The position numbers were made by a program, and so were the translations under genes. The notes below the pieces were generated by a model. It saw nothing but the letters and a program-made list of their open reading frames with translations, was not told the DNA's origin and searched no databases. A stretch of DNA of 20,000 nt from an uncultured virus (IMG/VR IMGVR_UViG_3300027631_000012) (Duplodnaviria > Heunggongvirae > Uroviricota > Caudoviricetes), in IMG/VR virus record IMGVR_UViG_3300027631_000012; one strand, written 5' to 3'. Within the stretch, counting starts at the first letter, position 1, and each line of letters begins with the position of its first letter. Below are positions 1-17,003 of the stretch, one piece after another.

Positions 1-1
1 T

Positions 2-1602
2 ACATCAGGATCAAGTGGGTCTTCGGGAACTAGTGGTTCTTCAGGATCATCAGGTACAAGTGGTTCATCAGGGTCAAGTGGAACAAGTGGTTCAAGTGGA
101 TCTTCAGGAACTAGTGGTAGTTCAGGATCTAGTGGTACAAGTGGATCTTCTGGATCTTCTGGTACATCAGGATCAAGTGGAACTTCAGGATCATCAGGTA
201 CATCCGGATCTTCTGGTACAAGTGGTTCATCAGGGTCTAGTGGTACTTCTGGATCATCAGGATCATCCGGTACAAGTGGTAGTTCAGGATCATCCGGTAC
301 AAGTGGTAGTTCAGGATCATCCGGTACAAGTGGTTCTTCAGGTAGTTCAGGTACATCAGGATCAAGTGGTACTAGTGGATCATCTGGATCTAGCGGTACA
401 AGTGGATCTTCAGGATCTAGTGGTACATCAGGATCTAGTGGATCAAGTGGAACTTCCGGTTCTTCAGGCTCATCAGGAACTTCCGGTTCTTCAGGCAGCT
501 CAGGTACAAGTGGTTCGTCAGGATCAAGTGGTACATCAGGATCAAGTGGTACATCAGGATCATCCGGAACTTCCGGCTCATCCGGAACAAGTGGTTCGTC
601 AGGATCTAGTGGAACTTCCGGTTCTTCTGGATCTAGTGGTACAAGTGGTTCATCAGGATCTTCAGGTACATCAGGATCTAGTGGCACAAGTGGTTCATCA
701 GGATCAAGCGGCACATCAGGGTCTTCGGGTACATCAGGATCAAGTGGTACTAGTGGATCATCTGGATCTAGCGGTACATCAGGATCTAGTGGATCAAGTG
801 GAACTTCCGGTTCTTCAGGCAGCTCAGGTACAAGTGGCTCATCAGGATCATCAGGAACAAGTGGCTCATCGGGTAGCTCAGGTACATCAGGATCATCAGG
901 ATCAAGTGGTACTAGTGGATCATCAGGATCAAGTGGTACATCAGGTAGTTCAGGATCATCAGGTACAAGTGGATCTTCAGGATCATCCGGTACAAGTGGA
1001 TCATCCGGAACAAGTGGATCATCAGGAACAAGTGGATCTTCAGGGTCATCCGGAACAAGTGGTAGTTCAGGATCAAGCGGTACATCAGGTAGCTCAGGAT
1101 CTTCGGGCACAAGTGGATCTTCAGGATCATCCGGTACATCAGGATCAAGTGGAACTTCTGGTTCATCAGGTTCATCAGGAACAAGTGGTTCATCAGGTAG
1201 CTCAGGCACAAGTGGTTCGTCAGGATCAAGTGGTACATCAGGATCTTCAGGATCAAGCGGTACATCAGGATCAAGTGGAACATCAGGTAGTTCAGGATCA
1301 TCAGGAACAAGTGGATCAAGCGGTACTTCTGGTAAAGCTGGATCTAGTGGATCATCAGGAACAAGTGGATCTTCAGGATCTAGTGGAACATCAGGATCTT
1401 CTGGATCATCCGGAACAAGTGGATCTTCAGGATCATCGGGTACAAGTGGATCTTCAGGATCTTCAGGTACAAGTGGTTCATCAGGATCTTCAGGTACAAG
1501 TGGTTCATCAGGATCATCCGGAACAAGTGGATCTTCAGGATCTAGTGGAACATCGGGTAAGGCAGGATCTAGTGGATCAAGTGGAACAAGTGGTTCGTCA
1601 GG
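2..1602 (+). repeat. Degenerate 9-nt coding tandem repeat (Gly-Ser/Thr-Ser triplets) in gene 1
   Basis: Directly visible gga/ggt-tca/tct/aca-agt/tca units; shorter blocks of the same repeat at ~2017-2340 and ~2726-2841. Confidence 0.95.
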
Positions 1603-3466
1603 TATTACTGGAGTTGGTAACTTCACACTTGAGTATACGGGTACAGATATTACTACTAGTGCTTTCGTTAGTCAGAATGTGACTATAATTCCAAATCCAG
1701 GATCTAGTGACTTTTTCACTATAAATGGTTCTTATTTTAGATTTTCTTTAACTGATAGATTTAGTAATAATATTTACCAAACTCTTGTAGACTTAAAGAG
1801 CATACTAGATACTTATGCCGGTCCTACTATAATGATTAAGATTACTGATATTAATGATCCAAGTAAGTATAATTTTTATTCAGCTTCTTCTATTGGGTGG
1901 TCTCTTACATCAGGTAGTGGTATACAAACAGATCATGTTTATTATAGTTCAGGAGCTGGTATAACTGACTTCTCAACTAATGATGTGGCTGTTACTTTCA
2001 TAATACCTGGTCGAAATGGATCTTCTGGATCTAGTGGTACAAGTGGTTCATCAGGATCTTCAGGTACATCAGGATCTTCAGGTAGTTCAGGTACAAGTGG
2101 ATCTAGTGGATCAAGTGGAACATCGGGTAAGGCAGGATCTAGTGGATCAAGTGGTACTAGTGGATCATCAGGATCATCAGGTACAAGTGGATCATCAGGA
2201 TCTTCAGGAACTAGTGGATCTTCTGGATCTAGTGGCACAAGTGGATCTTCAGGATCATCAGGTACAAGTGGATCATCAGGATCTTCGGGAACTAGTGGAT
2301 CATCAGGTTCATCAGGTACAAGTGGATCATCAGGTACATCTGGTCAATCTGGTATGGATGGATCCAACTCTGGTAGATGGTATTATAACTCAGGTGTTAC
2401 TGCTCCGGCTGATCCAACTGTTACTAAATTTGCTATAAATGCTACTTTAGGAACTAATAGTTGGATTTCCATAAGTTCAGCTAATATAAATGGTACTAAC
2501 TATACCAATTGGCTCGCGGCTTTAAATACCATTTATACATCTGGTAACACTATTTATTTACAGTTATATGAAGTTGGTTCTACAAACATTATAGGTATCT
2601 GGACTGTTGATGCTACTGTTATTCAGTCATATGGTATTGATATAAGAGTAACACCTCTTATAGCAAATGGTTCTTTAATTAATGGTAGAGCTTATACAAT
2701 TTCATGGGTATTTAATGGAAAAAATGGTTCATCAGGAACAAGTGGTTCTTCAGGTACAAGTGGATCATCCGGAACTTCTGGATCAAGTGGTACATCGGGA
2801 TCAAGTGGTACATCGGGATCAAGTGGTACATCCGGTACATCCGTTGCTGTAGCTGGTACAGGTGATGTATTTACTAAATTTACATCAGCAACTACAATTG
2901 GAGATACTTCATATGATGTTCATGAGATGCCTTCAGATGGTACTTTATCATTTGGACCAGCAACAGATGTTAGCGCTCTTACATATGGTCAGATAGCACA
3001 TGCTAAAGATATTATAGCAATTCAAGGTGATGCTCAAACCAATCAGATAATATTAAAGGGGTCGGTTCCTCCTACTGCGTGGGCGACTCTAACTTCGGAT
3101 TCTGGTGGTGCTGCTCAAATTCAAATACCTGTTGGAGCGGCTTTATCTGGAGCAATTTCATTCCGAGTACAATTAGTTGCTATGGAGAACAGTGCTAGTT
3201 CTTATACTAGTCATTTAGTTTATGAAGGTCTCGCTAAAGCAACTCCTACAACAAGTTCTATAGTAAATGTCATGAATGCTAATCCGGCTGAAGAGATAAT
3301 AGGATTACATAAGGCGCAATTTTCAACTACTGGATCGGGAACCGCTGGAGCTTTCTTGGTTATTGAGGTTCTTAACAATTCAGGTGCTGGTTCACCTTGG
3401 CCTCCTGCTCCGGGAAGACCAGCAAATGTAGTAGTTTATGTAAGATATACACAAACAGTATTTTAA
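2..3466 (+). CDS. 5'-truncated giant Ser/Gly-rich Gly-X-Y (collagen-like) repeat protein with interspersed globular domains; putative virion fibre
   Basis: Frame 2 reads TSGSSGSSGTSG... from position 2 and continues without a stop through 1603-1678 (GITGVGNFTLEYTGTDITTSAFVSQN) into the listed 1679..3466 ORF. The GTG at 1679 is therefore internal and the true start lies upstream of the window. Stop TAA at 3464-3466. Non-repeat domains at ~1603-2016, ~2341-2725 and ~2842-3463. Fibre function is inferred. Confidence 0.88.
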   Translation, partial: TSGSSGSSGTSGSSGSSGTSGSSGSSGTSGSSGSSGTSGSSGSSGTSGSSGSSGTSGSSGTSGSSGTSGSSGTSGSSGSSGTSGSSGSSGTSGSSGSSGTSGSSGSSGTSGSSGSSGTSGSSGTSGSSGSSGTSGSSGSSGTSGSSGSSGTSGSSGSSGTSGSSGSSGTSGSSGSSGTSGSSGTSGSSGTSGSSGTSGSSGSSGTSGSSGSSGTSGSSGSSGTSGSSGTSGSSGSSGTSGSSGTSGSSGTSGSSGSSGTSGSSGSSGTSGSSGSSGTSGSSGSSGTSGSSGSSGTSGSSGSSGTSGSSGSSGTSGSSGSSGTSGSSGSSGTSGSSGTSGSSGTSGSSGSSGTSGSSGSSGTSGSSGSSGTSGSSGSSGTSGSSGTSGSSGSSGTSGSSGSSGTSGSSGSSGTSGSSGSSGTSGSSGTSGSSGSSGTSGSSGTSGKAGSSGSSGTSGSSGSSGTSGSSGSSGTSGSSGSSGTSGSSGSSGTSGSSGSSGTSGSSGSSGTSGSSGSSGTSGKAGSSGSSGTSGSSGITGVGNFTLEYTGTDITTSAFVSQNVTIIPNPGSSDFFTINGSYFRFSLTDRFSNNIYQTLVDLKSILDTYAGPTIMIKITDINDPSKYNFYSASSIGWSLTSGSGIQTDHVYYSSGAGITDFSTNDVAVTFIIPGRNGSSGSSGTSGSSGSSGTSGSSGSSGTSGSSGSSGTSGKAGSSGSSGTSGSSGSSGTSGSSGSSGTSGSSGSSGTSGSSGSSGTSGSSGSSGTSGSSGSSGTSGSSGTSGQSGMDGSNSGRWYYNSGVTAPADPTVTKFAINATLGTNSWISISSANINGTNYTNWLAALNTIYTSGNTIYLQLYEVGSTNIIGIWTVDATVIQSYGIDIRVTPLIANGSLINGRAYTISWVFNGKNGSSGTSGSSGTSGSSGTSGSSGTSGSSGTSGSSGTSGTSVAVAGTGDVFTKFTSATTIGDTSYDVHEMPSDGTLSFGPATDVSALTYGQIAHAKDIIAIQGDAQTNQIILKGSVPPTAWATLTSDSGGAAQIQIPVGAALSGAISFRVQLVAMENSASSYTSHLVYEGLAKATPTTSSIVNVMNANPAEEIIGLHKAQFSTTGSGTAGAFLVIEVLNNSGAGSPWPPAPGRPANVVVYVRYTQTVF

Positions 3467-3488
3467 TAGTATTTACTTTACTTTAATT

Positions 3489-3532
3489 TAATTAACCAAT
3501 CTCAATTATTTGAGGTTGGTTAATTATTTTTT
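3489..3532 (+). terminator. Rho-independent terminator after gene 1
   Basis: 17-bp arms taattaaccaatctcaa (3489-3505) and ttgaggttggttaatta (3510-3526) with one G-U pair and a 4-nt loop, followed by a T run at 3527-3532; starts 22 nt after the stop codon. Confidence 0.8.
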
Positions 3533-3593
3533 AAATAAACCACTAATTTCCATTTTTTATTGAAGATAATGTGATATTACTCTTTAATATTAA

Positions 3594-3621
3594 AATATAT
3601 AACTATGGAAATTAATATATA
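3594..3621 (+). promoter_or_regulatory. Two AATATATA motifs upstream of the 3289-aa gene; candidate phage late promoter
   Basis: aatatataa at 3594-3602 and ttaatatata at 3612-3621. The same motif precedes the 17018 (+) and 19854 (-) starts. It resembles the T4 late promoter TATAAATA. The AT-rich background limits certainty. Confidence 0.45.
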
Positions 3622-3652
3622 GAATTATATAGAAAAAATTAAAAGAACCTGA

Positions 3653-6600
3653 ATGTCAAAATATATAATCAGTAATAGTGATGGTGTAGAATTTATCACG
3701 GGAACCGGACCTAATAATAAAGGATTAAACATACCAGTAGTCGCTAACGCTACTACACATACTACATCTGGTATAGAAACTGGAGCAGTAATATTTGATG
3801 ATTTAACAAAACAAATTTTCAGATTTACAGGAACTGCTTGGTTGTCTGGTGCTGGTACATCCGGAACTAGCGGTACAAGTGGAACTAGTGGTAGTTCAGG
3901 ATCAAGTGGGTCTTCGGGATCATCAGGATCTTCCGGGTCTAGTGGTACTTCTGGTAAAGATGGATCATCTGGAACTTCCGGATCTAGCGGCTCTTCCGGA
4001 TCTAGCGGTAGTTCAGGTACATCAGGATCATCAGGTTCTTCAGGTACAAGTGGATCATCAGGATCAAGCGGATCAAGCGGATCAAGCGGATCATCAGGTA
4101 GTTCAGGTACATCAGGATCAAGTGGTTCTTCTGGATCATCAGGATCAAGCGGATCTTCAGGATCAAGTGGCTCTTCTGGTACATCAGGTAAAGCAGGATC
4201 AAGTGGTACTAGTGGCTCTTCAGGATCAAGTGGTACATCAGGATCATCAGGTAGTTCAGGATCAAGCGGGTCAAGTGGTACATCCGGATCAAGTGGATCA
4301 TCAGGTTCTTCGGGTTCTTCGGGTTCTTCGGGTTCTTCCGGATCAAGTGGTTCAAGTGGATCATCAGGTACAAGTGGTTCTTCTGGATCAAGTGGATCAT
4401 CTGGATCAAGCGGATCTTCAGGTACATCAGGATCAAGTGGTTCTAGTGGAACTTCAGGGTCGTCGGGATCAAGCGGATCATCAGGAAGTTCAGGATCATC
4501 AGGATCAAGTGGATCTTCAGGCACAAGTGGTTCTTCCGGATCATCAGGAAGTTCAGGATCAAGTGGATCATCTGGTACAAGTGGATCTTCAGGCACATCA
4601 GGAAGTTCAGGATCATCAGGATCAAGTGGTACATCAGGAAGTTCAGGATCAAGCGGATCAAGCGGATCATCAGGTAGTTCAGGTACATCAGGATCAAGTG
4701 GATCTTCCGGTACATCAGGATCAAGTGGATCAAGTGGATCAAGTGGTTCATCAGGAACATCAGGTAAAGCAGGATCAAGTGGTACATCAGGGTCAAGTGG
4801 GTCAAGTGGTTCAAGTGGTACATCAGGATCAAGTGGGTCAAGTGGATCAAGTGGTACATCAGGATCTTCAGGCTCATCAGGATCTTCAGGATCGTCAGGA
4901 TCAAGTGGAAGTTCAGGTACATCCGGATCAAGTGGAACATCCGGATCAAGTGGATCTTCTGGTACATCAGGATCAAGTGGTTCTAGTGGATCAAGTGGTA
5001 GTTCAGGAACATCAGGATCAAGTGGATCATCTGGATCTAGTGGTAGTTCAGGAACATCAGGATCAAGTGGAACTTCAGGTTCGTCGGGATCAAGCGGTAG
5101 TTCAGGATCTAGTGGATCATCAGGATCATCAGGCACATCAGGATCAAGCGGTTCATCGGGTTCTAGTGGATCAAGTGGTACTTCAGGGTCGTCAGGATCA
5201 AGCGGATCATCAGGTAGTTCAGGTACATCAGGATCAAGCGGTTCATCAGGTACATCAGGTAAAGCAGGATCTTCGGGTACAAGTGGATCTTCAGGATCTT
5301 CAGGTACATCAGGAAGTTCAGGATCAAGTGGATCTAGTGGTACAAGTGGATCAAGTGGTAGTTCAGGATCAAGCGGATCATCAGGATCATCAGGGTCAAG
5401 TGGTACATCAGGATCTTCTGGATCTAGTGGGTCTTCAGGATCTTCAGGATCAAGTGGTACATCAGGATCAAGCGGTTCTAGTGGTACATCAGGATCAAGT
5501 GGTTCATCGGGGTCAAGCGGTTCAAGCGGATCATCAGGCACTTCAGGATCTTCGGGATCAAGTGGCTCATCTGGTACATCAGGTTCTTCGGGATCAAGTG
5601 GATCATCAGGATCCTCAGGTACAAGTGGTTCTAGTGGATCTTCAGGATCTTCAGGTACATCAGGATCAAGTGGTTCTTCAGGATCAAGTGGATCAAGTGG
5701 TACTTCAGGTTCATCAGGATCAAGTGGATCATCAGGAAGTTCAGGAACATCAGGATCAAGTGGATCTTCAGGTAGTTCAGGATCAAGTGGATCATCAGGT
5801 ACAAGCGGGTCTTCAGGTAGTTCAGGTACTTCAGGATCAAGTGGATCTTCAGGATCATCAGGATCAAGCGGATCATCAGGTACAAGTGGTAGTTCAGGAT
5901 CTAGTGGATCATCCGGATCTTCAGGATCATCTGGGTCAAGTGGTTCTTCAGGATCTAGTGGTAGCTCAGGTACAAGTGGATCTTCTGGTACTTCAGGATC
6001 AAGTGGATCTTCAGGATCAAGTGGTAGCTCAGGATCAAGTGGTTCTTCAGGTACATCAGGTAAAGCAGGATCTTCGGGAACTAGTGGTAGTTCAGGCACA
6101 TCAGGATCAAGTGGTAGCTCAGGATCTAGTGGATCTTCAGGCACATCAGGCTCTTCGGGTTCTTCTGGATCAAGTGGATCTTCAGGTACAAGTGGATCAT
6201 CAGGATCAAGCGGTACATCAGGATCTTCAGGTACAAGTGGATCATCTGGATCAAGCGGTACATCGGGATCATCAGGTAGTTCAGGTTCAAGTGGATCATC
6301 AGGATCAAGCGGTACATCAGGTAGTTCAGGATCAAGCGGTTCTTCAGGATCTTCTGGATCAAGTGGATCATCAGGGTCTAGTGGTTCTTCAGGATCATCA
6401 GGTAGTTCAGGCACAAGCGGTTCTAGTGGATCATCCGGTACAAGTGGTTCTTCAGGATCTTCAGGTAGTTCGGGATCAAGTGGTACAAGTGGTAGTTCAG
6501 GCTCAAGTGGTTCAAGCGGATCATCAGGAACCTCTGGTTCAAGTGGATCTAGTGGTACGAGTGGATCATCAGGAACATCCGGTTCATCGGGTAGTTCAGG

Positions 6601-9600: not shown

Positions 9601-12600
9601 AAGTGGATCTTCAGGATCAAGTGGATCTTCAGGATCAAGTGGATCTTCAGGATCAAGTGGATCAAGTGGCTCTTCTGGTACATCAGGATCAAGTGGTACA
9701 AGTGGATCGTCTGGATCAAGTGGTAGTTCAGGATCATCTGGATCTAGTGGTAGTTCAGGTAGTTCGGGATCATCAGGTACAAGTGGTTCTTCAGGATCAA
9801 GCGGATCTTCGGGATCAAGTGGCTCTTCAGGGTCATCAGGATCAAGTGGCTCTTCTGGTACATCAGGTAAAGCAGGATCAAGTGGCACTAGTGGTTCTTC
9901 AGGATCAAGCGGTACTTCAGGATCATCTGGATCTAGTGGATCATCAGGTAGTTCGGGATCATCAGGTTCATCCGGAAGTTCAGGTACAAGTGGATCATCT
10001 GGTACATCCGGATCAAGTGGCTCTTCAGGATCTAGTGGTTCTTCCGGCTCTTCAGGATCTAGTGGTACCTCAGGTAGTTCAGGATCTAGTGGTTCTTCCG
10101 GCTCTTCAGGATCTAGTGGATCATCAGGATCAAGTGGATCATCTGGTAGTTCAGGTACAAGTGGATCATCCGGATCAAGTGGATCTTCGGGATCAAGTGG
10201 TAGTTCAGGATCTAGCGGATCTTCTGGGTCATCAGGATCAAGTGGTACTTCAGGAGTAAATGGAGCAACTACAGGAGCTTGTGGTCTTTGGAATTTATCA
10301 AATAATAATCCACCATTAACAGGTGAAGTTAATTCAAACCTTGGTAATGTAATGTCCGCTTCGGTTACTACTATGAGATTGTATGATGTTGACGCATCTA
10401 CTACAAACTGGGCTACATTCTTCGCTACATTAACTATTGGTTCTGTTATAACTGCTGTGTCTAGTGCAAATCCTCTTAATACATGGACATTTACAATAAC
10501 ATCAATAGGTGATAGTGGATTGTTCTATACTTTTGGAGTTAGTAATATTAACTCAACAGGAGCTGTTTCACAAGTTGGTGGACCAGTTAGGTTATGTTTC
10601 AATATTTTTGGATCTTCAGGATCAAGTGGTAGTTCAGGTACATCGGGTAAGTCAGGATCTTCGGGCACAAGTGGATCATCGGGATCTTCAGGTACAAGTG
10701 GATCATCAGGATCAAGTGGATCTTCAGGGTCATCAGGATCTTCCGGATCTAGTGGATCTTCAGGATCTAGTGGTACAAGTGGATCATCAGGATCAAGTGG
10801 ATCTTCAGGTTCATCAGGATCTTCCGGTACATCAGGATCTTCAGGATCTTCCGGATCTTCAGGATCTTCAGGATCTTCCGGTACATCAGGATCAAGTGGA
10901 TCTTCGGGGTCTTCAGGATCTAGTGGTACAAGTGGATCATCAGGATCAAGTGGATCATCAGGATCTAGTGGTAGTTCGGGATCAAGCGGATCTTCCGGTA
11001 CATCAGGTAAATCAGGATCAAGTGGTACATCAGGATCAAGTGGATCTTCGGGTACATCAGGATCAAGTGGATCTTCCGGATCATCAGGATCAAGTGGATC
11101 TTCAGGATCATCAGGATCATCAGGATCATCAGGATCATCAGGATCAAGTGGATCTTCCGGATCATCAGGTACAAGTGGATCAGCTGGTGTGTCTGGTAAT
11201 GATGGTTCTAATAGTGGTAGATGGTATTTTAATAGTGGTGTCACTGCACACGGAGATCCTACTACTACTAAATTTGATACCGATTCTACGACAATTTCAG
11301 CAATTGGTAAAATTAGTATTCATAACGATAATATAAATAGTGTATCTTATGTCTCTTGGTTTAATGCTTTAGTTTCTGCTACAACTGTAGGTACCGTTTA
11401 TTTACAATTATATGAAGTTCGTAATAGTAGTATCTTAGGAGTATGGGCTGTTCTATCTGCTAGTACTACAGCTTATGGTATTAATTTAGCTGTTCCTGCG
11501 GCTTTGGCATCAAATGGTATATTGACTAATGGTAACACTTATACTATATCTTGGTCTTTTAGTGGGAATAGTGGATCTAGTGGATCATCGGGTACTTCTG
11601 GCAAGTCAGGATCAAGTGGTACTTCAGGATCTTCAGGATCAAGTGGTACTTCAGGATCAAGTGGATCATCAGGATCAAGTGGATCTTCAGGATCTTCAGG
11701 ATCTTCAGGATCAAGTGGATCAAGTGGATCATCAGGAACAAGTGGTGTTAGTGGCGCATCTGGTACGTCAGGTGTGTCTGGATCAAGTGGATCATCAGGT
11801 ACTTCCGGTTCTTCAGGATCAAGTGGCTCTTCCGGATCATCAGGATCAAGTGGTACATCGGGTAAAGCTGGATCATCAGGATCAAGCGGTACATCAGGTA
11901 GTTCGGGATCAAGTGGATCATCAGGATCAAGCGGATCAAGCGGTACATCAGGTAGTTCAGGATCCAGTGGATCTTCGGGATCAAGTGGATCAAGTGGATC
12001 ATCAGGATCAAGCGGATCAAGCGGTACATCAGGTAGTTCAGGATCCAGTGGATCTTCGGGATCAAGTGGATCAAGTGGTTCTTCGGGATCATCAGGATCA
12101 AGTGGTACCTCAGGATTAAGTGGTTCTTCGGGATCTTCGGGATCTTCGGGATCATCAGGATCAAGTGGTTCTTCGGGATCTTCAGGATCAAGTGGTACAT
12201 CAGGTAAAGCTGGATCATCAGGATCAAGTGGTACCTCAGGATCAAGTGGATCAAGTGGTTCTTCGGGATCATCAGGATCAAGTGGCACCTCAGGATCAAG
12301 TGGATCTTCAGGATCAAGTGGATCAAGTGGATCTTCGGGATCTTCAGGTTCTTCTGGATCTTCGGGTTCAAGTGGTACATCAGGTAGATCTGGATCATCA
12401 GGATCAAGTGGTACCTCAGGATCAAGTGGATCAAGTGGTTCTTCGGGATCTTCAGGATCAAGTGGTACATCAGGTAGTTCAGGATCTTCCGGATCAAGTG
12501 GATCATCGGGATCAAGTGGTTCTTCAGGATCAAGTGGCTCTTCAGGTACAAGTGGTTTAAGCGGTAGGCAACAATTATATGTTGGATCTGTTCCTCCTCC

Positions 12601-13522
12601 AGGTCCATACCCAGGACCATTTGCTGTTAATGACCTTTACATTGATACAGCAGCAAATCGTGTGTATCAGTATAATGGTGCTACCTGGATCACAATATCA
12701 TCATTCACCGGATCAAGTGGATCATCCGGATCAAGTGGTTCTTCGGGATCATCAGGATCAAGTGGTACATCAGGTAAAGCTGGATCATCAGGATCTTCAG
12801 GTAGTTCTGGATCTTCGGGATCTTCAGGATCTAGTGGATCTGCTGGTACATCAGGTACTTCTCCAGCTGGTGGTGGTACTACATTAAATAACAATACTAA
12901 TAATTATATTGTTACAATGACCGGTACAGCTAGTAATTTAGATGGTGAGTCTGATTTACGATTTGATGGTGAAACATTATACCAACAAGTGCCTGCTGGT
13001 ACTATAGCTACTACACCTCTCGGTGGTATTACAAGTAATATTAATAGTACTCTTTTTACAGCTTCAAGTAAATATCCAGGCGTTCCACGTTTTACTGGAG
13101 AAGTAATCTATGCTGAAAATATAGGTGGTCCTACAATTACCCGTGGTGAAGTTTGTTATTGGAGTTATAATGCTACTAGTTTTGGATTTAAAGCGACTGA
13201 TATTAATATTATTCAGAGTACATTTATGTTAGGAGTCGCTCTTGAAGATGTTAATGGTGGTGCTTTTGGTGATTTCCTACTTAAAGGTTTTGTCTCTCTT
13301 CCTGCTAGCGTTGTCGACCTTGGTGGTGGTGGTGGTACTGATGGTGAACCTCTATATCTTACTTTGACTGTTGGTGCTGTGTCTAACGCCAATAGATGGG
13401 GTGGTACACCGGGTAATCATTACTATAGATGTATTGGTTATCTTGTAACTCAACTTGTTAGTATAAGTGGATCTACCTATCATGTTATAAGATTCGACCC
13501 AAGTACAGATTATATATTGTAA
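3653..13522 (+). CDS. 3289-aa giant Gly-Ser-Ser/Gly-Thr-Ser collagen-like repeat protein with globular domains; putative head or tail fibre glycoprotein
   Basis: ATG at 3653, TAA at 13520-13522. Unique N-terminus (~67 aa), long Gly-X-Y run 3854-10261, domains at ~10262-10610, ~11190-11570 and ~12565-12708, and a C-terminal region ~12868-13519 beginning NNNTNNYIVTMTGTASNLDGESDLRFDG, a motif type I associate with phage fibre proteins. No signal peptide or membrane anchor is visible. Confidence 0.9.
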   Translation: MSKYIISNSDGVEFITGTGPNNKGLNIPVVANATTHTTSGIETGAVIFDDLTKQIFRFTGTAWLSGAGTSGTSGTSGTSGSSGSSGSSGSSGSSGSSGTSGKDGSSGTSGSSGSSGSSGSSGTSGSSGSSGTSGSSGSSGSSGSSGSSGSSGTSGSSGSSGSSGSSGSSGSSGSSGTSGKAGSSGTSGSSGSSGTSGSSGSSGSSGSSGTSGSSGSSGSSGSSGSSGSSGSSGSSGSSGTSGSSGSSGSSGSSGSSGTSGSSGSSGTSGSSGSSGSSGSSGSSGSSGSSGTSGSSGSSGSSGSSGSSGTSGSSGTSGSSGSSGSSGTSGSSGSSGSSGSSGSSGTSGSSGSSGTSGSSGSSGSSGSSGTSGKAGSSGTSGSSGSSGSSGTSGSSGSSGSSGTSGSSGSSGSSGSSGSSGSSGTSGSSGTSGSSGSSGTSGSSGSSGSSGSSGTSGSSGSSGSSGSSGTSGSSGTSGSSGSSGSSGSSGSSGSSGTSGSSGSSGSSGSSGTSGSSGSSGSSGSSGTSGSSGSSGTSGKAGSSGTSGSSGSSGTSGSSGSSGSSGTSGSSGSSGSSGSSGSSGSSGTSGSSGSSGSSGSSGSSGTSGSSGSSGTSGSSGSSGSSGSSGSSGTSGSSGSSGSSGTSGSSGSSGSSGSSGTSGSSGSSGSSGTSGSSGSSGSSGSSGTSGSSGSSGSSGSSGTSGSSGSSGSSGSSGSSGTSGSSGSSGTSGSSGSSGSSGSSGSSGTSGSSGSSGSSGSSGSSGSSGSSGSSGSSGTSGSSGTSGSSGSSGSSGSSGSSGSSGTSGKAGSSGTSGSSGTSGSSGSSGSSGSSGTSGSSGSSGSSGSSGTSGSSGSSGTSGSSGTSGSSGSSGTSGSSGSSGSSGSSGSSGTSGSSGSSGSSGSSGSSGSSGSSGSSGSSGSSGTSGSSGSSGTSGSSGSSGSSGSSGTSGSSGSSGSSGSSGTSGSSGSSGTSGSSGTSGSSGSSGSSGSSGSSGTSGSSGTSGKAGSSGTSGSSGSSGSSGSSGSSGTSGSSGSSGSSGSSGTSGSSGSSGSSGSSGTSGSSGSSGSSGSSGTSGSSGSSGSSGSSGTSGSSGSSGSSGSSGSSGSSGSSGSSGTSGKAGSSGTSGSSGTSGSSGSSGSSGSSGSSGSSGSSGSSGTSGSSGSSGSSGSSGTSGSSGSSGSSGSSGTSGSSGSSGTSGSSGTSGSSGSSGSSGSSGSSGSSGSSGSSGTAGSSGSSGSSGSSGSSGTSGSSGSSGSSGSSGSSGTSGSSGSSGSSGSSGSSGSSGSSGSSGSSGTSGKAGSSGTSGSSGSSGTSGSSGSSGTSGSSGSSGSSGSSGSSGTSGSSGSSGSSGSSGSSGTSGSSGSSGSSGSSGSSGSSGSSGSSGTSGSSGTSGKAGSSGTSGSSGSSGSSGSSGSSGSSGSSGSSGTSGSSGSSGTSGSSGSSGSSGSSGSSGTSGSSGSSGSSGSSGSSGSSGTSGSSGSSGTSGSSGSSGSSGSSGTSGSSGSSGSSGSSGSSGTSGSSGSSGSSGSSGSSGSSGTSGSSGSSGTSGSSGSSGSSGSSGSSGSSGSSGSSGSSGTSGKAGSSGTSGSSGSSGTSGSSGSSGSSGSSGSSGTSGSSGSSGSSGSSGSSGSSGTSGSSGSSGSSGSSGSSGSSGSSGSSGSSGSSGTSGSSGTSGSSGSSGSSGSSGSSGSSGSSGTSGKAGSSGTSGSSGSSGTSGSSGSSGSSGSSGSSGSSGSSGSSGTSGSSGSSGSSGSSGTSGSSGSSGSSGSSGSSGTSGSSGSSGSSGSSGSSGTSGSSGSSGSSGSSGSSGSSGSSGSSGSSGSSGTSGSSGSSGSSGSSGSSGTSGSSGSSGTSGSSGSSGSSGSSGSSGSSGSSGSSGSSGTSGKAGSSGTSGSSGSSGTSGSSGSSGSSGSSGSSGTSGSSGSSGSSGSSGSSGSSGSSGSSGSSGTSGRDGSSGTSGSSGSSGTSGSSGSSGSSGSSGSSGTSGSSGSSGSSGSSGSSGSSGSSGSSGTSGSSGTSGSSGSSGSSGSSGSSGSSGSSGSSGTSGSSGSSGSSGSSGSSGSSGSSGSSGTSGKAGSSGTSGSSGSSGTSGSSGSSGSSGSSGSSGSSGSSGTSGSSGTSGSSGSSGSSGSSGSSGSSGTSGSSGSSGSSGSSGSSGSSGSSGSSGSSGTSGSSGSSGSSGSSGSSGSSGSSGSSGSSGTSGVNGATTGACGLWNLSNNNPPLTGEVNSNLGNVMSASVTTMRLYDVDASTTNWATFFATLTIGSVITAVSSANPLNTWTFTITSIGDSGLFYTFGVSNINSTGAVSQVGGPVRLCFNIFGSSGSSGSSGTSGKSGSSGTSGSSGSSGTSGSSGSSGSSGSSGSSGSSGSSGSSGTSGSSGSSGSSGSSGSSGTSGSSGSSGSSGSSGSSGTSGSSGSSGSSGSSGTSGSSGSSGSSGSSGSSGSSGSSGTSGKSGSSGTSGSSGSSGTSGSSGSSGSSGSSGSSGSSGSSGSSGSSGSSGSSGSSGTSGSAGVSGNDGSNSGRWYFNSGVTAHGDPTTTKFDTDSTTISAIGKISIHNDNINSVSYVSWFNALVSATTVGTVYLQLYEVRNSSILGVWAVLSASTTAYGINLAVPAALASNGILTNGNTYTISWSFSGNSGSSGSSGTSGKSGSSGTSGSSGSSGTSGSSGSSGSSGSSGSSGSSGSSGSSGSSGTSGVSGASGTSGVSGSSGSSGTSGSSGSSGSSGSSGSSGTSGKAGSSGSSGTSGSSGSSGSSGSSGSSGTSGSSGSSGSSGSSGSSGSSGSSGSSGTSGSSGSSGSSGSSGSSGSSGSSGSSGTSGLSGSSGSSGSSGSSGSSGSSGSSGSSGTSGKAGSSGSSGTSGSSGSSGSSGSSGSSGTSGSSGSSGSSGSSGSSGSSGSSGSSGSSGTSGRSGSSGSSGTSGSSGSSGSSGSSGSSGTSGSSGSSGSSGSSGSSGSSGSSGSSGTSGLSGRQQLYVGSVPPPGPYPGPFAVNDLYIDTAANRVYQYNGATWITISSFTGSSGSSGSSGSSGSSGSSGTSGKAGSSGSSGSSGSSGSSGSSGSAGTSGTSPAGGGTTLNNNTNNYIVTMTGTASNLDGESDLRFDGETLYQQVPAGTIATTPLGGITSNINSTLFTASSKYPGVPRFTGEVIYAENIGGPTITRGEVCYWSYNATSFGFKATDINIIQSTFMLGVALEDVNGGAFGDFLLKGFVSLPASVVDLGGGGGTDGEPLYLTLTVGAVSNANRWGGTPGNHYYRCIGYLVTQLVSISGSTYHVIRFDPSTDYIL
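3854..10261 (+). repeat. ~711 in-register Gly-X-Y triplets (9-nt degenerate tandem repeat)
   Basis: Gly codons checked at 3854, 4187, 4763, 5258, 6059, 6653, 6995, 7535, 7823, 8381, 8741, 9299, 9866 and 10253 all share the same position modulo 9; (10253-3854)/9 = 711. Further blocks at ~10611-11190, ~11570-12560 and ~12710-12860. Confidence 0.95.
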
Positions 13523-13529
13523 AAAAATA

Positions 13530-13565
13530 AATTATGAGTGTGGTTAAATAATCACACTCATAATT
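13530..13565. terminator. Intergenic hairpin; possible terminator (U-tract on the minus strand) or RNA stability element
   Basis: aattatgagtgtggtta (13530-13546) pairs with taatcacactcataatt (13549-13565) with one G-U pair. The A run at 13521-13527 gives a U tract for minus-strand transcripts; the plus strand has no good U tract. Confidence 0.6.
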
Positions 13566-13584
13566 ATAAAAACATAGATTATAG

Positions 13585-13995
13585 ATGCCTACATATTATA
13601 ATGGAAAAGAAATAACATCTACTAGTAAATTGAGTGGATTAAGTTTAGTTGGTAGATCATCTATTACTATAGGTGGAAAAGTGACTACTCTATCAACGCC
13701 TCCTCCCCCTTCTCCTGAGATGAGTGTTTATGGAGATTCTAGTGGTGCTTCTGGGTATCCGGATCCTGGTACTGCTTGTATGTTTGGTGCTGGTGGAACC
13801 CCTTTACGAGTTTTTGTTAAGGATAATGGTGATGGTAGTTTCTCTTTATTTAAAGATAAGGCATTTACAATTCCTATAGGCCCTGGTTGGTGGTGGTCGG
13901 ACGATACTAGTAATATTGGTGGTGGTGCTAGTCCAGAAGGTTCTCCTTCCTTAGTGGATCCAAGTGGTCTTGTAGTGATGATTTCGAGATGTTGA
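13585..13995 (+). CDS. Hypothetical 136-aa Gly/Ser/Pro-rich protein, possibly a fibre-associated virion protein
   Basis: ATG start and TGA stop, fills the gap after the fibre gene, with an N-terminal segment, a PPPPSP linker and a small domain containing GPGWWWS. No family recognised. Confidence 0.7.
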   Translation: MPTYYNGKEITSTSKLSGLSLVGRSSITIGGKVTTLSTPPPPSPEMSVYGDSSGASGYPDPGTACMFGAGGTPLRVFVKDNGDGSFSLFKDKAFTIPIGPGWWWSDDTSNIGGGASPEGSPSLVDPSGLVVMISRC

Positions 13996-14002
13996 TGATA
14001 AA

Positions 14003-14743
14003 CTATGGTGTAGCTACACCTCTTTTAGAAACAACTATTGAAGCCATTTCATTGGCATAAATAATAGAAGTCTTAATATCACCAGTTTCTAAATACTTTA
14101 AGATAAATGCTGATGTAAATGTATCTCCAGCTCCACTAACATCTATAGTTTCTTGTGGATTCGGACTAGGATAAACTTCATCATTGAATTTAGTTCCCTT
14201 ACTTCCTAAAGTAACTAATATATTTTTACACTCCAATAAATCAGAATTATGTAAAGACTCTTTCTCATTCAATTTCACAAAAGTAAAACTATTGACTATC
14301 TCTTTACTTAATTTTCTCTTAGAATCTAATATAGATATCTTTGAGTTTTTACCTATTATTAGTAAATCATCATTAGTCATAAATCCTTTATCATAATCAC
14401 TTACAATAACAATATTAAAATGACCTAATTCCTCCACTCTCTCACCAATTAATTCTACTTTAGATATATTTGATTCACCATCATCTAATCTAAGAAACAT
14501 ATGATTACTTTTCTTTTCAACAAATCTAGTTTTAGTTATAATTTCATCTTGATACCAATGAGCTACTAAACTATCACTTTTCATAGCTAAAATGTTTCTA
14601 ACAACATTACCAGCCATTCCATCATTTTCAACTATTTCTATAGGATTCAAAACAGGTACTGGTGCTTCTGGGCTAAACCTAGAAACATCACAATACATAA
14701 ATCTATCTATACACTTTTCCCCTATTACTAAAATCTTAAACAT
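14003..14743 (-). CDS. hldE: Stand-alone D-glycero-beta-D-manno-heptose-7-phosphate kinase (HldE/RfaE domain I, HldA-like; PfkB/ribokinase family)
   Basis: HldE-type N-terminus ILVIGE..IDRFMY..VSRFSPEAPVPVL...GMAGNV..N, then ITKTRFV, VIVSDYDKG, KLNEKE, LVTLGSKG and the PfkB signature DVSGAGDTF; C-terminal A..VV.KRGVAT. No adenylyltransferase domain. Confidence 0.88.
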   Translation of the reverse strand: MFKILVIGEKCIDRFMYCDVSRFSPEAPVPVLNPIEIVENDGMAGNVVRNILAMKSDSLVAHWYQDEIITKTRFVEKKSNHMFLRLDDGESNISKVELIGERVEELGHFNIVIVSDYDKGFMTNDDLLIIGKNSKISILDSKRKLSKEIVNSFTFVKLNEKESLHNSDLLECKNILVTLGSKGTKFNDEVYPSPNPQETIDVSGAGDTFTSAFILKYLETGDIKTSIIYANEMASIVVSKRGVATP

Positions 14744-16919
14744 TTATAACTTCATTTATTTTTTCAATAACCATTTGAGAAGTTATTTCTTTAGTACACT
14801 CAAATTGTCTTTCAGTGTTTTTATATATTGGACACCAATTCCAATCACCACTGTCTAATCTATGTGAGTTAAAACATCCATGACAAACACTTTTATTTAT
14901 AACTCTATATGTATCTGTTGTTGTTTCACTATATTCCTGACTAAATCCAGATATTAAAACTGTTGGTAAGCCAATTGACCACGATAACCAACTTAAACCT
15001 GATCCTAAGCCAACAAAGAACTCACAAGTAGCCATATCGTTTATAACAGATTCTATTGTACCATCGCTTTCAAACTTTCTTATTCCTACTGGATGATTAT
15101 TACCCATATATCCGTCATTTTCTCTTGAATATAAAACAACATCATATCCTTTTAATTTTAGATAATCAACAACTTCTTGCCAACCAGTTGGGTTATTCCA
15201 GTATTTTGCTTGAGCAGTTGAGTGTATTCCAATACCAACTTTTTTCTCTCTTTTACCATTTGGAAATTTAAGTAAAGCTCTTGTTTCTTTATATTCAAGT
15301 CCTAAGATGTCAGAAGCTGTTTTTTGCAAAGGCATTATTCTGAAATCATTTGGGTTTCTAGATAAATTAAACTCACCATCTTTGTAAAACCAACCTAATT
15401 TATACATTGCGTATAATCCAGAAACACCTGTTCCTGGTTCTACAAATTCAATGTCGGGATAAGTGTCTCTAAATAAATTATTCATAAATGTAGAAACAAC
15501 TAAATGACATTTGTGTTTATCTTTGAACTCTCTTATATAAGGAACCCAAGCTAAAGTATCTCCTAATGAACTACTTTCTAAAGTTATAAATACTTTTTTA
15601 CCTTTCAAGTCTAGAGTGTTGTCATATATAAGCTTTCCACTTTCCCATATCTTTGTATTCCACTTAGTAAAATATTCTCTATTCAATCTTATCCAATGAT
15701 TTGATGATAATTCTTCTGAATAATGACATCTACCTGATTCATCATAAAACTCAACTTTGAATTTACTATTACTTTCGCCTTTTATTTCTAAAAATGGATT
15801 ATTAACAAAGTATTGTATTATTTCTGGTTTTGGTATAAATTTAGTTTGACTCGTAATAGGAAGATTTTTAACATTTTTGTAAAACTGAATATGTTGATTC
15901 TCAAATTCAGAAGACCCGTCTATAACTTCATATGTTGATTCCGAATCTAATAGGGAAAGAAGTTTATTTTTAGTAGTAACTATATCATCATTAATTTGTG
16001 TGATATATGGTGTAAACATATCCATATATTGTGGTAAATTTCTTGATATTATTTTAAGACCGTGTGATATAGCTTCTCTTACAACTAATGGATTACATTC
16101 CCAAGTTGAATTAAACATAAAAACATCAGCAGCTCTCATAAATAAATCTGTATCATGTCTTTCTCCCCAAACAGTAACATTTGATGGTATATTACTCATT
16201 ATAGGTCCCCAATATTCCGCAAAGTTTATTGCTTGATTTCCTATAAAATGAAATTGAATTTCTGGATTAGATTGTTCTAATTGTTTTGCTAATTCAACAC
16301 CTTCTTTTTGATTTTTACCGGATGTCCATAATCCTACATTTATAATGTGTTTTTTGTTTGGGTCTAGTCCTAGAATTTCTTTAGCCTGTGATTTCTCTTC
16401 TAAAGTAGGTACTTTATTTTCAATAGGATGTTCCATTACTTCACTATATGAAGGCATTTGAGAAAAAGTAGACATTTTGTGCCAAGGTGTGCAAAAAGCA
16501 TAACCATCAGGATTAAATCTCTTAGATGTGTTTGGATTAAACCAAACATTATGACAAGTTTCAACTATCTTCCAAGTTCTACTATTATCATATAAATCAT
16601 TTAATAGTGAATCTGGTACTACTTGACCAAATCCTTCTAAAATCTCATCAGAGTGAACTATATCAATGTTATTACTTTTAATAATCTCCATTAAACTATA
16701 CTTATCTTCACCTAAAGTAAAAAAGTTCTCAGGTTTAATTAGTTCTTTAATTTTGTTTTTCTGAACTACATATTCGTCACTGAAGTTTGTATATTCTACT
16801 ACAAATAATTCTAATTCTTCTTGTTTTATTATATTTTCAATTCTTTTCAATAGGAAAGCTGGCATTCCTCCTGTTGATAAATGTGGAGCGAGGAATAATA
16901 TCTTTAATTTACTTTGCAT
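14736..16919 (-). CDS. Fusion of an N-terminal GT4 (GT-B) glycosyltransferase and a C-terminal Aah/TibC-family autotransporter-type O-heptosyltransferase
   Basis: N-half: ILFLAPHLSTGG, INVGLWTSGKNQ, FHFIG, FMRAADVFMFNSTWECNPLVVREAISHG (GT4 E-x7-E motif). C-half: SSSLGDTLAWVPY, STAQAKYWNNPTGWQEVVDYLK, FFVGLGSGLSWLSW, VLISGFS, CHGC...WCP...RQFECTKEIT, matching the Aah/TibC motifs. Likely ATG is at 16919 (MQSKLK); the ORF track extends to an alternative start at 16946. The stop overlaps the kinase start by 8 nt. Confidence 0.88.
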   Translation of the reverse strand: MQSKLKILFLAPHLSTGGMPAFLLKRIENIIKQEELELFVVEYTNFSDEYVVQKNKIKELIKPENFFTLGEDKYSLMEIIKSNNIDIVHSDEILEGFGQVVPDSLLNDLYDNSRTWKIVETCHNVWFNPNTSKRFNPDGYAFCTPWHKMSTFSQMPSYSEVMEHPIENKVPTLEEKSQAKEILGLDPNKKHIINVGLWTSGKNQKEGVELAKQLEQSNPEIQFHFIGNQAINFAEYWGPIMSNIPSNVTVWGERHDTDLFMRAADVFMFNSTWECNPLVVREAISHGLKIISRNLPQYMDMFTPYITQINDDIVTTKNKLLSLLDSESTYEVIDGSSEFENQHIQFYKNVKNLPITSQTKFIPKPEIIQYFVNNPFLEIKGESNSKFKVEFYDESGRCHYSEELSSNHWIRLNREYFTKWNTKIWESGKLIYDNTLDLKGKKVFITLESSSLGDTLAWVPYIREFKDKHKCHLVVSTFMNNLFRDTYPDIEFVEPGTGVSGLYAMYKLGWFYKDGEFNLSRNPNDFRIMPLQKTASDILGLEYKETRALLKFPNGKREKKVGIGIHSTAQAKYWNNPTGWQEVVDYLKLKGYDVVLYSRENDGYMGNNHPVGIRKFESDGTIESVINDMATCEFFVGLGSGLSWLSWSIGLPTVLISGFSQEYSETTTDTYRVINKSVCHGCFNSHRLDSGDWNWCPIYKNTERQFECTKEITSQMVIEKINEVINV

Positions 16920-16924
16920 AGTTA

Positions 16925-16932
16925 TATTTATA
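16925..16932 (-). promoter_or_regulatory. TATAAATA (exact T4 late-promoter consensus) 5 nt upstream of the glycosyltransferase ATG
   Basis: Plus-strand tatttata at 16925-16932; the minus strand reads TATAAATAtaactATG. Could be chance in AT-rich DNA. Confidence 0.3.
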
Positions 16933-17003
16933 TTTTTACTTATCAATTATATGAAATATTTTAATAAAGTTAATAGTAAGTGATTAAAAAGTGTTGATAG
17001 AAT

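Follow-up and report, generated by a model that had tools for sequence, protein, structure and literature searches.

A probable virion-fibre O-glycosylation module in an uncultured huge phage: a TibC-like transferase domain beside collagen-like Gly-Ser-Ser fibre genes

The DNA analysed here is a 20,000-nucleotide stretch of the uncultured caudoviricete virus IMGVR_UViG_3300027631_000012 (IMG/VR), called the window below. Two plus-strand genes within it encode giant Ser-rich fibre proteins, and a minus-strand operon pointing towards them encodes a two-domain glycosyltransferase and a sugar kinase (Table 1). Judged from sequence comparison, this arrangement probably serves a huge aquatic phage as a module for the O-glycosylation of its virion fibres, in which a TibC-like domain would transfer heptose to Ser and Thr of the fibre triplets. 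By DNA and protein similarity the window groups with uncultured huge phages (72-73% identity to LR756502 and LR745206 across about 1.5 kb), Lak phages being more distant.

An earlier, sequence-only reading of this DNA had described two giant proteins built of Ser-rich triplets. Both open reading frames (ORFs) were present, and their repeats are moreover of the Gly-X-Y type (hereafter G-X-Y). The complete protein, fibre 2, contains 1,642 Ser, 245 Thr and 973 Gly, so that the earlier estimate of roughly 1,500 Ser was slightly low. It comprises 909 G-X-Y triplets (GSS 701, GTS 172, and GKA 15 as punctuation), with a longest unbroken run of 713, set between a 67-residue N-terminal domain and a 219-residue C-terminal head and interrupted by inserts at residues 2207-2319, 2521-2637 and 2974-3019. 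All 24 Pro of its 3,289 residues lie outside the repeats, which are Pro-free. The visible part of fibre 1 holds 416 Ser and 232 triplets (GSS 141, GTS 82), its (Gly-Ser/Thr-Ser)n tracts being broken by globular inserts (residues 537-669 and 790-905) and followed by a C-terminal domain of 207 residues; matches to tail-fibre and collagen-like minor tail families in PHROG were weak and confined to the triplet part. With six or more Gly-X-Y triplets in a row as the definition of a collagen-like protein, as given in a passage of PMC11923368, both fibres are collagen-like.

The fibre ORFs are genuine genes and not products of slippage or assembly, because the repeat DNA is codon-diversified (tandem-repeat matches of just 61-86%), a single frame runs through the GSS repeats and the non-repeat N-terminal, insert and C-terminal domains, and an insert is common to both proteins (49% identity between insert 2 of fibre 1 and an insert of fibre 2). 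The G+C content is 47-48% in the repeats versus 25-29% elsewhere in the window, as expected from the codon make-up. No Pfam family matched any of the eight non-repeat fibre segments, and an AlphaFold2 (AF2) model of the C-terminal head, based on an alignment of three sequences, had a predicted local distance difference test score (pLDDT) of 43.3; homologues of the fibre 2 head were found at loci L086/L136 (48% identity) and L135 (31%) of our collection. Gene context at other loci (gp23, portal, sheath, baseplate, tail and capsid genes) indicates that such fibres are virion parts. Two further frames of more than 2,000 codons are open across fibre 2 (3625-10524 on the minus strand and 3807-10259 on the plus strand), with almost no Gly, Ser or Thr. 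These long extra frames result from the triplet repeat, so gene callers may choose the wrong strand or frame, as in Microcystis phage Mel-JY01, where a collagen-like ORF lies on the plus strand at 2-3049, running off the start of the record, and minus-strand hypothetical coding sequences (1-651 and 739-2298) were deposited instead.

The bacterial autotransporter heptosyltransferases (BAHT), the family of TibC and Aah, are marked by a ring-shaped dodecamer and by the transfer of heptose from adenosine diphosphate (ADP)-heptose to Ser. The C-terminal domain of the 736-residue transferase scored 301.5 bits with the hidden Markov model TIGR04414 (hepto_Aah_TibC; cut-off 200), its residues 393-733 aligning to positions 26-374 of the 374 in the model, and matched the TibC structures 4RAP/4RB4 with an E-value of 1.3e-61. 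The Aah/TibC-like transferase named in the sequence-only reading was thereby confirmed for this domain; that reading had missed the GT4 domain at residues 1-372. Passages of PMC4358343 describe Asp110 of TibC as the catalytic base, Thr226 and Lys230 as touching the beta-phosphate, Trp305 as touching heptose O4, and Cys339, 342, 358 and 370 as an iron finger; Arg286 donates a hydrogen bond to adenine N1, is the basis of ADP specificity and is highly conserved in the family, and Pro300 governs the selectivity between D,D- and L,D-heptose. In the window enzyme the equivalents are Asp463, Thr577, Lys581 and Trp653, with Cys688, 691, 705 and 717 as the iron finger (iron binding is predicted), and Val634 and Gly648 occupy the positions of Arg286 and Pro300. 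The Asp, Thr, Lys and Trp and the four Cys were the same in all 70 unique viral homologues, whose Arg286 and Pro300 positions vary. As the earlier reading had stated, the window holds no autotransporter: no autotransporter, AIDA or pertactin domain was found in its eight other ORFs or in the eight non-repeat fibre segments.

The N-terminal half has a GT4 domain of the retaining GT-B type (PF00534, 50.1 bits, cut-off 26.4; PF13692, 33.9 bits, cut-off 27). Its AF2 model (pLDDT 87.4, predicted template modelling score 0.86) gave BshA, MshA, PimB', WaaG and PglA as top Foldseek matches, with template modelling scores of 0.6-0.69 and E-values from 1e-9 down to 8e-13. We infer that the GT4 domain adds a second sugar, or carries out a second kind of transfer. 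A dedicated protein O-glycosyltransferase was also considered for this domain and set aside, since the matches of the fold search are generic retaining GT-B enzymes and lend it no support.

The kinase ORF overlaps that of the transferase by 8 nucleotides (14736-14743). Its product matched PF00294 (PfkB, 62 bits) and phrog_8133 (231.7 bits); the top NCBIfam family was rfaE_dom_I (TIGR02198, 125.5 bits), 80 bits ahead of ribokinase. The closest solved relative was 4E84, a D-beta-D-heptose 7-phosphate kinase (E-value 4.8e-13, against about 1e-4, 5e-5 or weaker, for ribokinases), and the alignment with it shows the GAGD motif (DVSGAGD). These comparisons place the kinase nearest to the heptose-7-phosphate kinases (HldE domain I/HldA).

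Table 1. Features of the window, with coordinates on the 20,000-nucleotide stretch
Feature	Coordinates	Strand	Remarks
Fibre gene 1	2..3466	+	5' end cut by the window edge; 1,154 residues seen
Fibre gene 2	3653..13522	+	Complete, 3,289 residues; proposed acceptor substrate
ORF of unknown function	13585..13995	+	136 residues; between fibre gene and kinase
PfkB-family sugar kinase	14003..14743	-	246 residues; translationally coupled to the transferase
Two-domain transferase	14736..16946	-	736 residues; TTG start, first ATG at 16919; convergent with the fibres
TibC/Aah-like (BAHT) domain	14739..15830	-	Residues 373-736 of the transferase
GT4 domain (GT-B, retaining-type)	15831..16946	-	Residues 1-372 of the transferase
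Conserved huge-phage gene	17018..17782	+	254 residues; divergent from the transferase operon; phrog_36119, 115 bits

The sequence-only reading had looked to co-occurrence of transferase and repeat genes across genomes, and this was found. Scanning IMG/VR, we recovered 240 viral stretches that code for proteins related to the TibC-like domain in 2.9 million contigs, the best 80 of which were taken with 10-kb flanks; loci added from neighbour-gene and kinase scans brought the set (L001-L143) to 3 phage records and 140 viral loci. The 116 with a TibC-like match formed 51 clusters at 90% identity. A G-X-Y ORF, defined by at least 10 triplets, was present in the locus (10-kb reach) in 40 of the 51 clusters, 39 of them of the Ser/Thr type, and in 26 of the 31 flanked by 6 kb or more on each side; many of the misses among the 51 were loci cut by contig ends. 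For 62 representatives the median distance between the two genes was 1.2 kb (55 within 5 kb), in four arrangements: convergent (33), upstream on the same strand (20), downstream on the same strand (6) and divergent (3). As a control, same-lineage loci collected by way of the neighbour gene and without TibC had a G-X-Y gene in 5 of 16 clusters, one of which (L116) has TibC farther upstream on the same contig (L215), and kinase-only loci had one in 0 of 6.

In the reverse search, a degenerate nucleotide pattern encoding eight Gly-[ST]-[ST] triplets matched at least 157 stretches of viral DNA; 77 flanked loci fell into 65 groups, 58 of which had Ser/Thr-type G-X-Y ORFs. A TibC-like gene was present in 10 of these 58 groups, a very large enrichment when set against 240 loci in 2.9 million contigs. 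The pairing is also seen in named phages. In Mel-JY01 (L001, PP395634.1) the Gly-Thr/Ser-Ser ORF of 1,016 residues lies 1.7 kb from a 1,226-residue multidomain protein ending in a TibC-like domain, and in the 735-kb phage LR756501 such a fibre lies 3.6 kb from a GT4-TibC fusion; phage LR756504 had no G-X-Y gene within 20 kb. In the Mel-JY01 region examined (1-8430), the 1,226-residue protein was deposited merely as 'methyltransferase FkbM'.

The pairing extends to bacterial chromosomes. When prokaryotes were scanned, with one genome taken for each species, 36 loci were recovered. The homologues of higher identity (45-50%), from Methylobacter luteus, a second Methylobacter, Methylococcales, Polaromonas, Burkholderiaceae and Binatia, each have a small ORF no more than a few hundred bases away, whose product combines a signal peptide or lipobox with some 15-40 triplets of the (Gly-Thr-Ser)n type. 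The genes around these pairs are ordinary chromosomal ones (mfd, P-type ATPase). A (Gly-Thr/Ser-Ser/Thr/Ala)n tract is the sole feature common to all the bacterial neighbour proteins, and at two loci (L316 and L323) the neighbour has nothing beyond it after the signal/lipobox region. The more distant homologues (35-42%; Selenomonadaceae, Pelosinus, Acidisphaera and others) adjoin proteins with AIDA, Autotransporter or Pertactin domains, and the enterobacterial plasmid loci had an autotransporter neighbour in 4 of 4 cases and a G-X-Y neighbour in 0 of 4. Since bacterial chromosomes pair TibC with (Gly-Thr-Ser)n proteins beside housekeeping genes, the linkage is not mere membership in a phage structural module; and since it both outlasts rearrangement and occurs outside such modules, it argues for an enzyme-substrate relation like that of the classical pairs. 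At L312, L313, L315, L316, L320, L323, L328 and L332, which are bacterial chromosomes and metagenome-assembled genomes, a stand-alone TibC-like gene stands directly beside the (Gly-Thr-Ser)n protein gene, and in some of these proteins a C-terminal domain that contains Cys and is of unknown family occurs in duplicate.

A maximum-likelihood tree of 90 representatives, obtained by dereplicating 166 sequences at 90% identity (quick IQ-TREE search; high-scoring segment pairs of under 300 residues or with stops were left out), supports the division. A branch with a support of 100 in the SH-aLRT (Shimodaira-Hasegawa-like approximate likelihood ratio test, the sole support measure) splits 14 rows from 76. 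On the 14-row side the neighbour was an autotransporter in 10 cases, neither type in 4 and a G-X-Y protein in none; on the 76-row side, which includes the Methylobacter, Methylococcales, Polaromonas and Binatia chromosomes, it was a G-X-Y protein in 63, neither type in 13 and an autotransporter in none. The four iron-finger Cys are invariant in all 90 representatives, and the equivalents of Asp110, Thr226, Lys230 and Trp305 are kept in all 76 G-X-Y-clade members. At the Arg286 position all 14 autotransporter-side rows have Arg, and 73 of the 76 G-X-Y-side rows, viral and bacterial, have Val, Ile, Leu or Thr; 9 of the 70 viral sequences have an Arg one column earlier. The Pro300 position in the 76 rows is Gly (61), Ser (13) or Ala (2). 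The loss of Arg286 in the G-X-Y clade implies that its donor may differ from that of TibC.

The nearest relatives of the window have a longer operon, in which the transferase gene is followed by genes for a cupin of 128 residues, a nucleotidyltransferase-like protein of 134 residues and the kinase. The 134-residue protein has a cytidylyltransferase fold, with rfaE_dom_II (heptose-1-phosphate adenylyltransferase) as top family (90.3 bits) and glycerol-3-phosphate cytidylyltransferase in second place (58.3 bits). Its gene lies directly upstream of the kinase gene at L006/130, L085/132, L086/136, L087/133, L088/89/134/135 and L131 and is absent from the window. Relatives' contigs keep both middle genes, the cupin alone, the nucleotidyltransferase alone or, like the window, neither. 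Every gene joint in this operon is the same overlapping stop/start, ATAAATG, in an alignment of the window with L004/L006/L085, and the window appears to have cleanly lost both middle genes between two such junctions. The junctions resemble recombination points for module loss; at L085/L132 the nucleotidyltransferase starts with the first five residues of the cupin. The cupin had no informative solved relative (best E-value 0.052) and a weak NCBIfam match; a role as isomerase or epimerase is possible, as a guess. The kinase was also considered as a general partner of the TibC-like enzyme, an idea we rejected because the adjacency is limited to the window's lineage.

Five large TibC-bearing phage genomes were searched for gmhA, gmhB and the two HldE domains. 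A domain-I-like gene was found in four of them (two at 301-306 bits), a domain-II-like gene in two and a gmhA-like gene in one (188 bits). The last of these, the complete 373-kb genome G003, thus has three of four heptose pathway steps, with gmhA-like (188 bits), domain-I-like (301 bits) and domain-II-like (107 bits) genes. The operon content in relatives and the heptose genes of large phage genomes make a nucleotide-activated heptose the most likely donor on present comparisons. Heptose itself is a likely sugar; ADP-heptose as its donor is not secured, because Arg286 is lost, the family scores are below threshold and the role of the cupin is a guess. The view of the GSS/GTS proteins as heptosylation substrates, put forward in the sequence-only reading, is accordingly backed by comparison as regards the acceptor, and its ADP-heptose donor is left less firm; the three computational checks named there (family model, co-occurrence and heptose genes) all came out in its favour.

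We suggest the following scheme, in which we infer the acceptor, the sugar, the order of the transfers and the structural role. The two plus-strand genes would yield very long, Pro-free collagen-like Gly-Ser-Ser/Gly-Thr-Ser fibres. The cytoplasmic two-domain enzyme from the convergent operon would, through its TibC-like domain, put heptose from a nucleotide-heptose donor on repeat Ser and Thr hydroxyls, and its GT4 domain would add a further sugar, on that heptose or on other hydroxyls. The HldE-kinase-like enzyme would raise the donor supply by phosphorylating heptose-7-phosphate. In relatives, the cupin and the HldE-domain-II-like nucleotidyltransferase would complete a small donor cassette; in the window, which lacks both, the host would supply those steps.

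A broader reading is possible and is offered tentatively. The Arg286-less clade may form a subfamily that is sister to the autotransporter heptosyltransferases and, in phages and bacteria alike, acts specifically on Gly-[Ser/Thr]-[Ser/Thr] repeat proteins. In phages its dense O-heptosylation might let Pro-free (Gly-Ser-Ser)n fold as a triple helix; heptosyl-serine would then take the role of hydroxyproline, and fused GT4 or methyltransferase domains would extend the glycan. It is doubtful that Pro-free repeats would form a stable triple helix without modification. With the collagen rise of about 0.286 nm per residue, the 909 triplets of the complete fibre would span some 0.6-0.8 micrometres if triple-helical, several times the length of T4 long tail fibres. 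Precedent for a structural role comes from passages of PMC11923368, in which (Gly-Pro-Thr)10 is a random coil and becomes triple-helical once its Thr is galactosylated, Riftia collagen relies on glycosylated Thr, and glycosylation can substitute for hydroxyproline as helix stabiliser.

Several observations weigh against fibre heptosylation by this module. The characterised BAHT enzymes act on a folded beta-helix, and the proposed acceptor here is a triplet repeat. The linkage is incomplete: 13 of the 76 G-X-Y-clade representatives have no G-X-Y gene in reach, including L003 with 20 kb on each side and the L135 lineage, whose homologue of the fibre head is without a collagen tract. Nor do such fibres generally need a TibC-like enzyme, since 48 of the 58 Gly-[ST]-[ST] fibre groups have none in reach. 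The association may stem from few evolutionary events, the loci not being independent. Arg286 is lost in the window and in 73 of the 76 G-X-Y-side rows (three retain Arg), so that the donor may differ. On the donor side, the kinase had been described in the sequence-only reading as HldE-type and coupled to the transferase; the overlap and the top family bear this out, and its 125.5 bits lie under the TIGR02198 equivalog cut-off of 345, with 246 residues against 315 model positions. The 134-residue protein likewise falls short of its equivalog cut-off (90.3 versus 181.5 bits). Of the heptose genes that the same reading had proposed to look for elsewhere on the contig, a search of relatives gave the adenylyltransferase-like gene in the operon and gmhA in one genome of five; gmhB was found in none of the five, the nearest near-complete relative (G001, 476 kb, 97% complete) had no gmhA-, gmhB- or domain-II-like gene, and the window holds no isomerase, phosphatase or nucleotidyltransferase for the pathway. 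The kinase adjoins TibC in the window's lineage only (L004-6, L084-89 and L128-137), and homologues of it occur without TibC in cyanophages (cyanomyoviruses). In the L135 lineage, a fibre-head homologue of 315 residues, 31% identical to the window's C-terminal head (L135 11874-14234; also L088, L089 and L134), adjoins a gene for a DUF7487/TnsA-like endonuclease, and the transferase-cupin-nucleotidyltransferase-kinase operon is intact; the tract-less head could be a rearranged fibre gene or one whose repeat collapsed in assembly.

These points leave room for other explanations. The same enzyme might glycosylate the fibres from a donor other than ADP-heptose, either another nucleoside diphosphate-heptose or a hexose, with the kinase in a modified pathway. 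The loss of Arg286 in 73 of 76 clade members and its retention in 14 of 14 classical rows would fit such a switch, as would Gly, Ser or Ala at the Pro300 position in all 76, a kinase and a nucleotidyltransferase both below their cut-offs (the latter with glycerol-3-phosphate cytidylyltransferase as second family, at 58.3 bits), a cupin of unknown activity within the cassette and the lack of heptose genes near most TibC-bearing loci. We nevertheless regard it as unlikely: Trp305, which contacts heptose O4, is invariant in the clade together with Thr226 and Lys230, the top families of the two cassette enzymes are the two halves of HldE, the top solved relative of the kinase is a heptose-7-phosphate kinase, and G003 holds gmhA-like, domain-I-like and domain-II-like genes. 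A change of acceptor, in which the TibC-like enzyme modifies another virion protein or the beta-rich inserts and heads of the fibres and the triplets merely lie in a neighbouring structural gene, seems improbable to us. Known BAHT enzymes recognise folded beta-structure (in passages of PMC4358343), the fibres do contain conserved globular inserts, and the L135 lineage keeps the operon beside a tract-less head; but the triplet tract is all that the bacterial neighbours have in common, and it is present for 63 of the 76 clade representatives, whereas the globular domains of the fibres are poorly conserved across loci, most being found in five or fewer.

It is also conceivable, although highly improbable in our view, that the transferase and kinase genes are auxiliary ones aimed at the host, serving to remodel lipopolysaccharide (LPS) or another envelope glycan, for instance in superinfection exclusion, and that their adjacency to the fibres is meaningless. 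WaaG and PimB', which act on LPS and glycolipids, are among the closest structures to the GT4 domain, Pfam gives a weak match to GT9, the LPS heptosyltransferase family, and the cyanophages have kinase homologues without TibC. Passages of a preprint on huge-phage envelope genes (10.64898/2026.10.24.761521) call PfkB kinases and glycosyltransferases common auxiliary genes of huge phages; they do so in general terms, and heptose, TibC and collagen are absent from those passages. Against this stand the score of the protein-specific BAHT model (301.5 bits versus 22 for GT9), the invariance of the BAHT-specific iron finger and the G-X-Y linkage itself, which recurs in four arrangements in phages and on bacterial chromosomes and would be unexpected for an LPS enzyme. 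Heptose transfer to the triplet Ser and Thr of the fibres is the reading we prefer.

Compared with TibC-TibA and Aah-AIDA-I of E. coli (TIGR04414; 4RAP/4RB4; passages of PMC4358343), the window enzyme is homologous and above the curated cut-off. It shares the catalytic Asp, the beta-phosphate and heptose contacts and the four-Cys iron finger, is probably cytoplasmic (no signal peptide is evident in the sequence), and is encoded next to a protein with hundreds of Ser acceptors, here candidate ones. Unlike those systems, it has a Gly-X-Y repeat protein as neighbour (an autotransporter in 0 of 76 rows versus 10 of 14), lacks Arg286, belongs to a separate clade, carries a fused GT4 domain in the majority of phages, is phage-borne and would modify a virion part. 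Relative to the ADP-L-glycero-beta-D-manno-heptose pathway (GmhA, HldE or HldA+HldC, GmhB, HldD), the window's lineage has a split HldE in the transferase operon; its proteins are shorter than the models and below the cut-offs, a cupin is added, and cassette members are freely lost.

Glycosylated collagen-like systems include BclA of the Bacillus exosporium, C. difficile BclA3/SgtA, Riftia cuticle collagen and the mimivirus collagens, with a hydroxylase and glycosyltransferases. These use other transferase families and other sugars (rhamnose/anthrose oligosaccharides, GlcNAc, galactose, glucose) and have Pro in the repeats, whereas the window combines Pro-free Gly-Ser-Ser repeats with a BAHT-relative enzyme. 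In the glycosylation of serine-rich-repeat and Ser-Asp-repeat adhesins, GT4-family enzymes (GtfA/GtfB and SdgA/SdgB) put O-linked sugars on surface fibres whose Ser-rich repeats are very long. The window GT4 domain reached 24.9 bits with the SdgA model, far under the cut-off of 800, no protein O-glycosyltransferase of these systems was among the top 50 Foldseek matches, and the repeats here are Gly-X-Y. PMC11923368, PMC7157674, PMC9546862 and PMC4691112 describe Gly-X-Y proteins that bear O-linked sugars on Thr (on hydroxylysine in mimivirus) by way of a dedicated transferase.

A literature search (supplements excluded) yielded no paper that ties TibC/BAHT enzymes to phages or to collagen-like repeats. 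To our knowledge, glycosylated phage virion proteins are documented in few cases only, and protein O-heptosylation is known solely for autotransporter adhesins of enteric bacteria. If the proposal is correct, a widespread group of aquatic phages, with no fewer than 240 viral contigs to its name, would, like certain free-living bacteria, apply a TibC relative to a Pro-free collagen-like substrate, giving the BAHT family a new substrate class and a sequence signature (the loss of Arg286). It would also offer a natural answer to the folding of Pro-free collagen tracts hundreds of triplets long and, with just two genes, a simple means of making recombinant collagen-like material that is densely glycosylated, and the fibre glycans could influence adsorption, host range and protease resistance of lake and estuary phages. 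Cultured carriers are Microcystis phage Mel-JY01 and Methylobacter luteus IMV-B-3098.

The transferase-kinase operon was found in 20 listed public runs of 10 studies labelled freshwater, lake, estuary or marine; two DNA and two RNA-library runs had short contigs only over the operon. No listed contig bridged the junction 14736-14743, the longest (RNA library, 14729-15434) having 15 letters on the kinase side. In RNA-library run X19, contigs 93-98% identical covered parts of the kinase, both transferase domains and the neighbour gene, with DNA carry-over possible.

Of the remaining genes, the 136-residue ORF had no match in Pfam, NCBIfam or PHROG and no tblastn match in any collected locus, and its membership in the sugar system is doubtful. 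The 254-residue product of the divergent gene is probably a Pol-beta-type nucleotidyltransferase: the nearest Atlas clusters have PF01909 (NTP_transf_2) in 85%, 33% and 22% of their members, which is a lead. This gene adjoins the transferase in many huge phages, is found in Lak phages at 67-73% DNA identity and occurs in 22 collected loci without TibC; synteny alone ties it to the sugar system.

At fibre loci without TibC, where 119 neighbouring ORFs were scanned at 24 representative loci, other transferases were often adjacent. They include a GT4+GT25+2-oxoglutarate (2OG)-oxygenase fusion (L218, 5096-7522), a GT1+GT25 protein (L152, 394-2778), a GT8+GT9 protein (L212) and a methyltransferase+GT2+GT9 protein (L219), with separate 2OG oxygenases at L144 (14545-15123) and L218. 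Judging from these sequences, Gly-[Ser/Thr] fibres look to be glycosylated quite generally, by enzymes of several kinds. GT25 is the family of the animal collagen galactosyltransferases, and the GT25 fusions and 2OG-Fe(II) oxygenase domains are reminiscent of a hydroxylysine-type collagen modification in phage. At L208 (12489-15428), also without TibC, a kinase 39% identical to that of the window is followed by E1-dehydrogenase/transketolase-like and zinc alcohol dehydrogenase genes, a set that may be a further sugar-modifying cassette.

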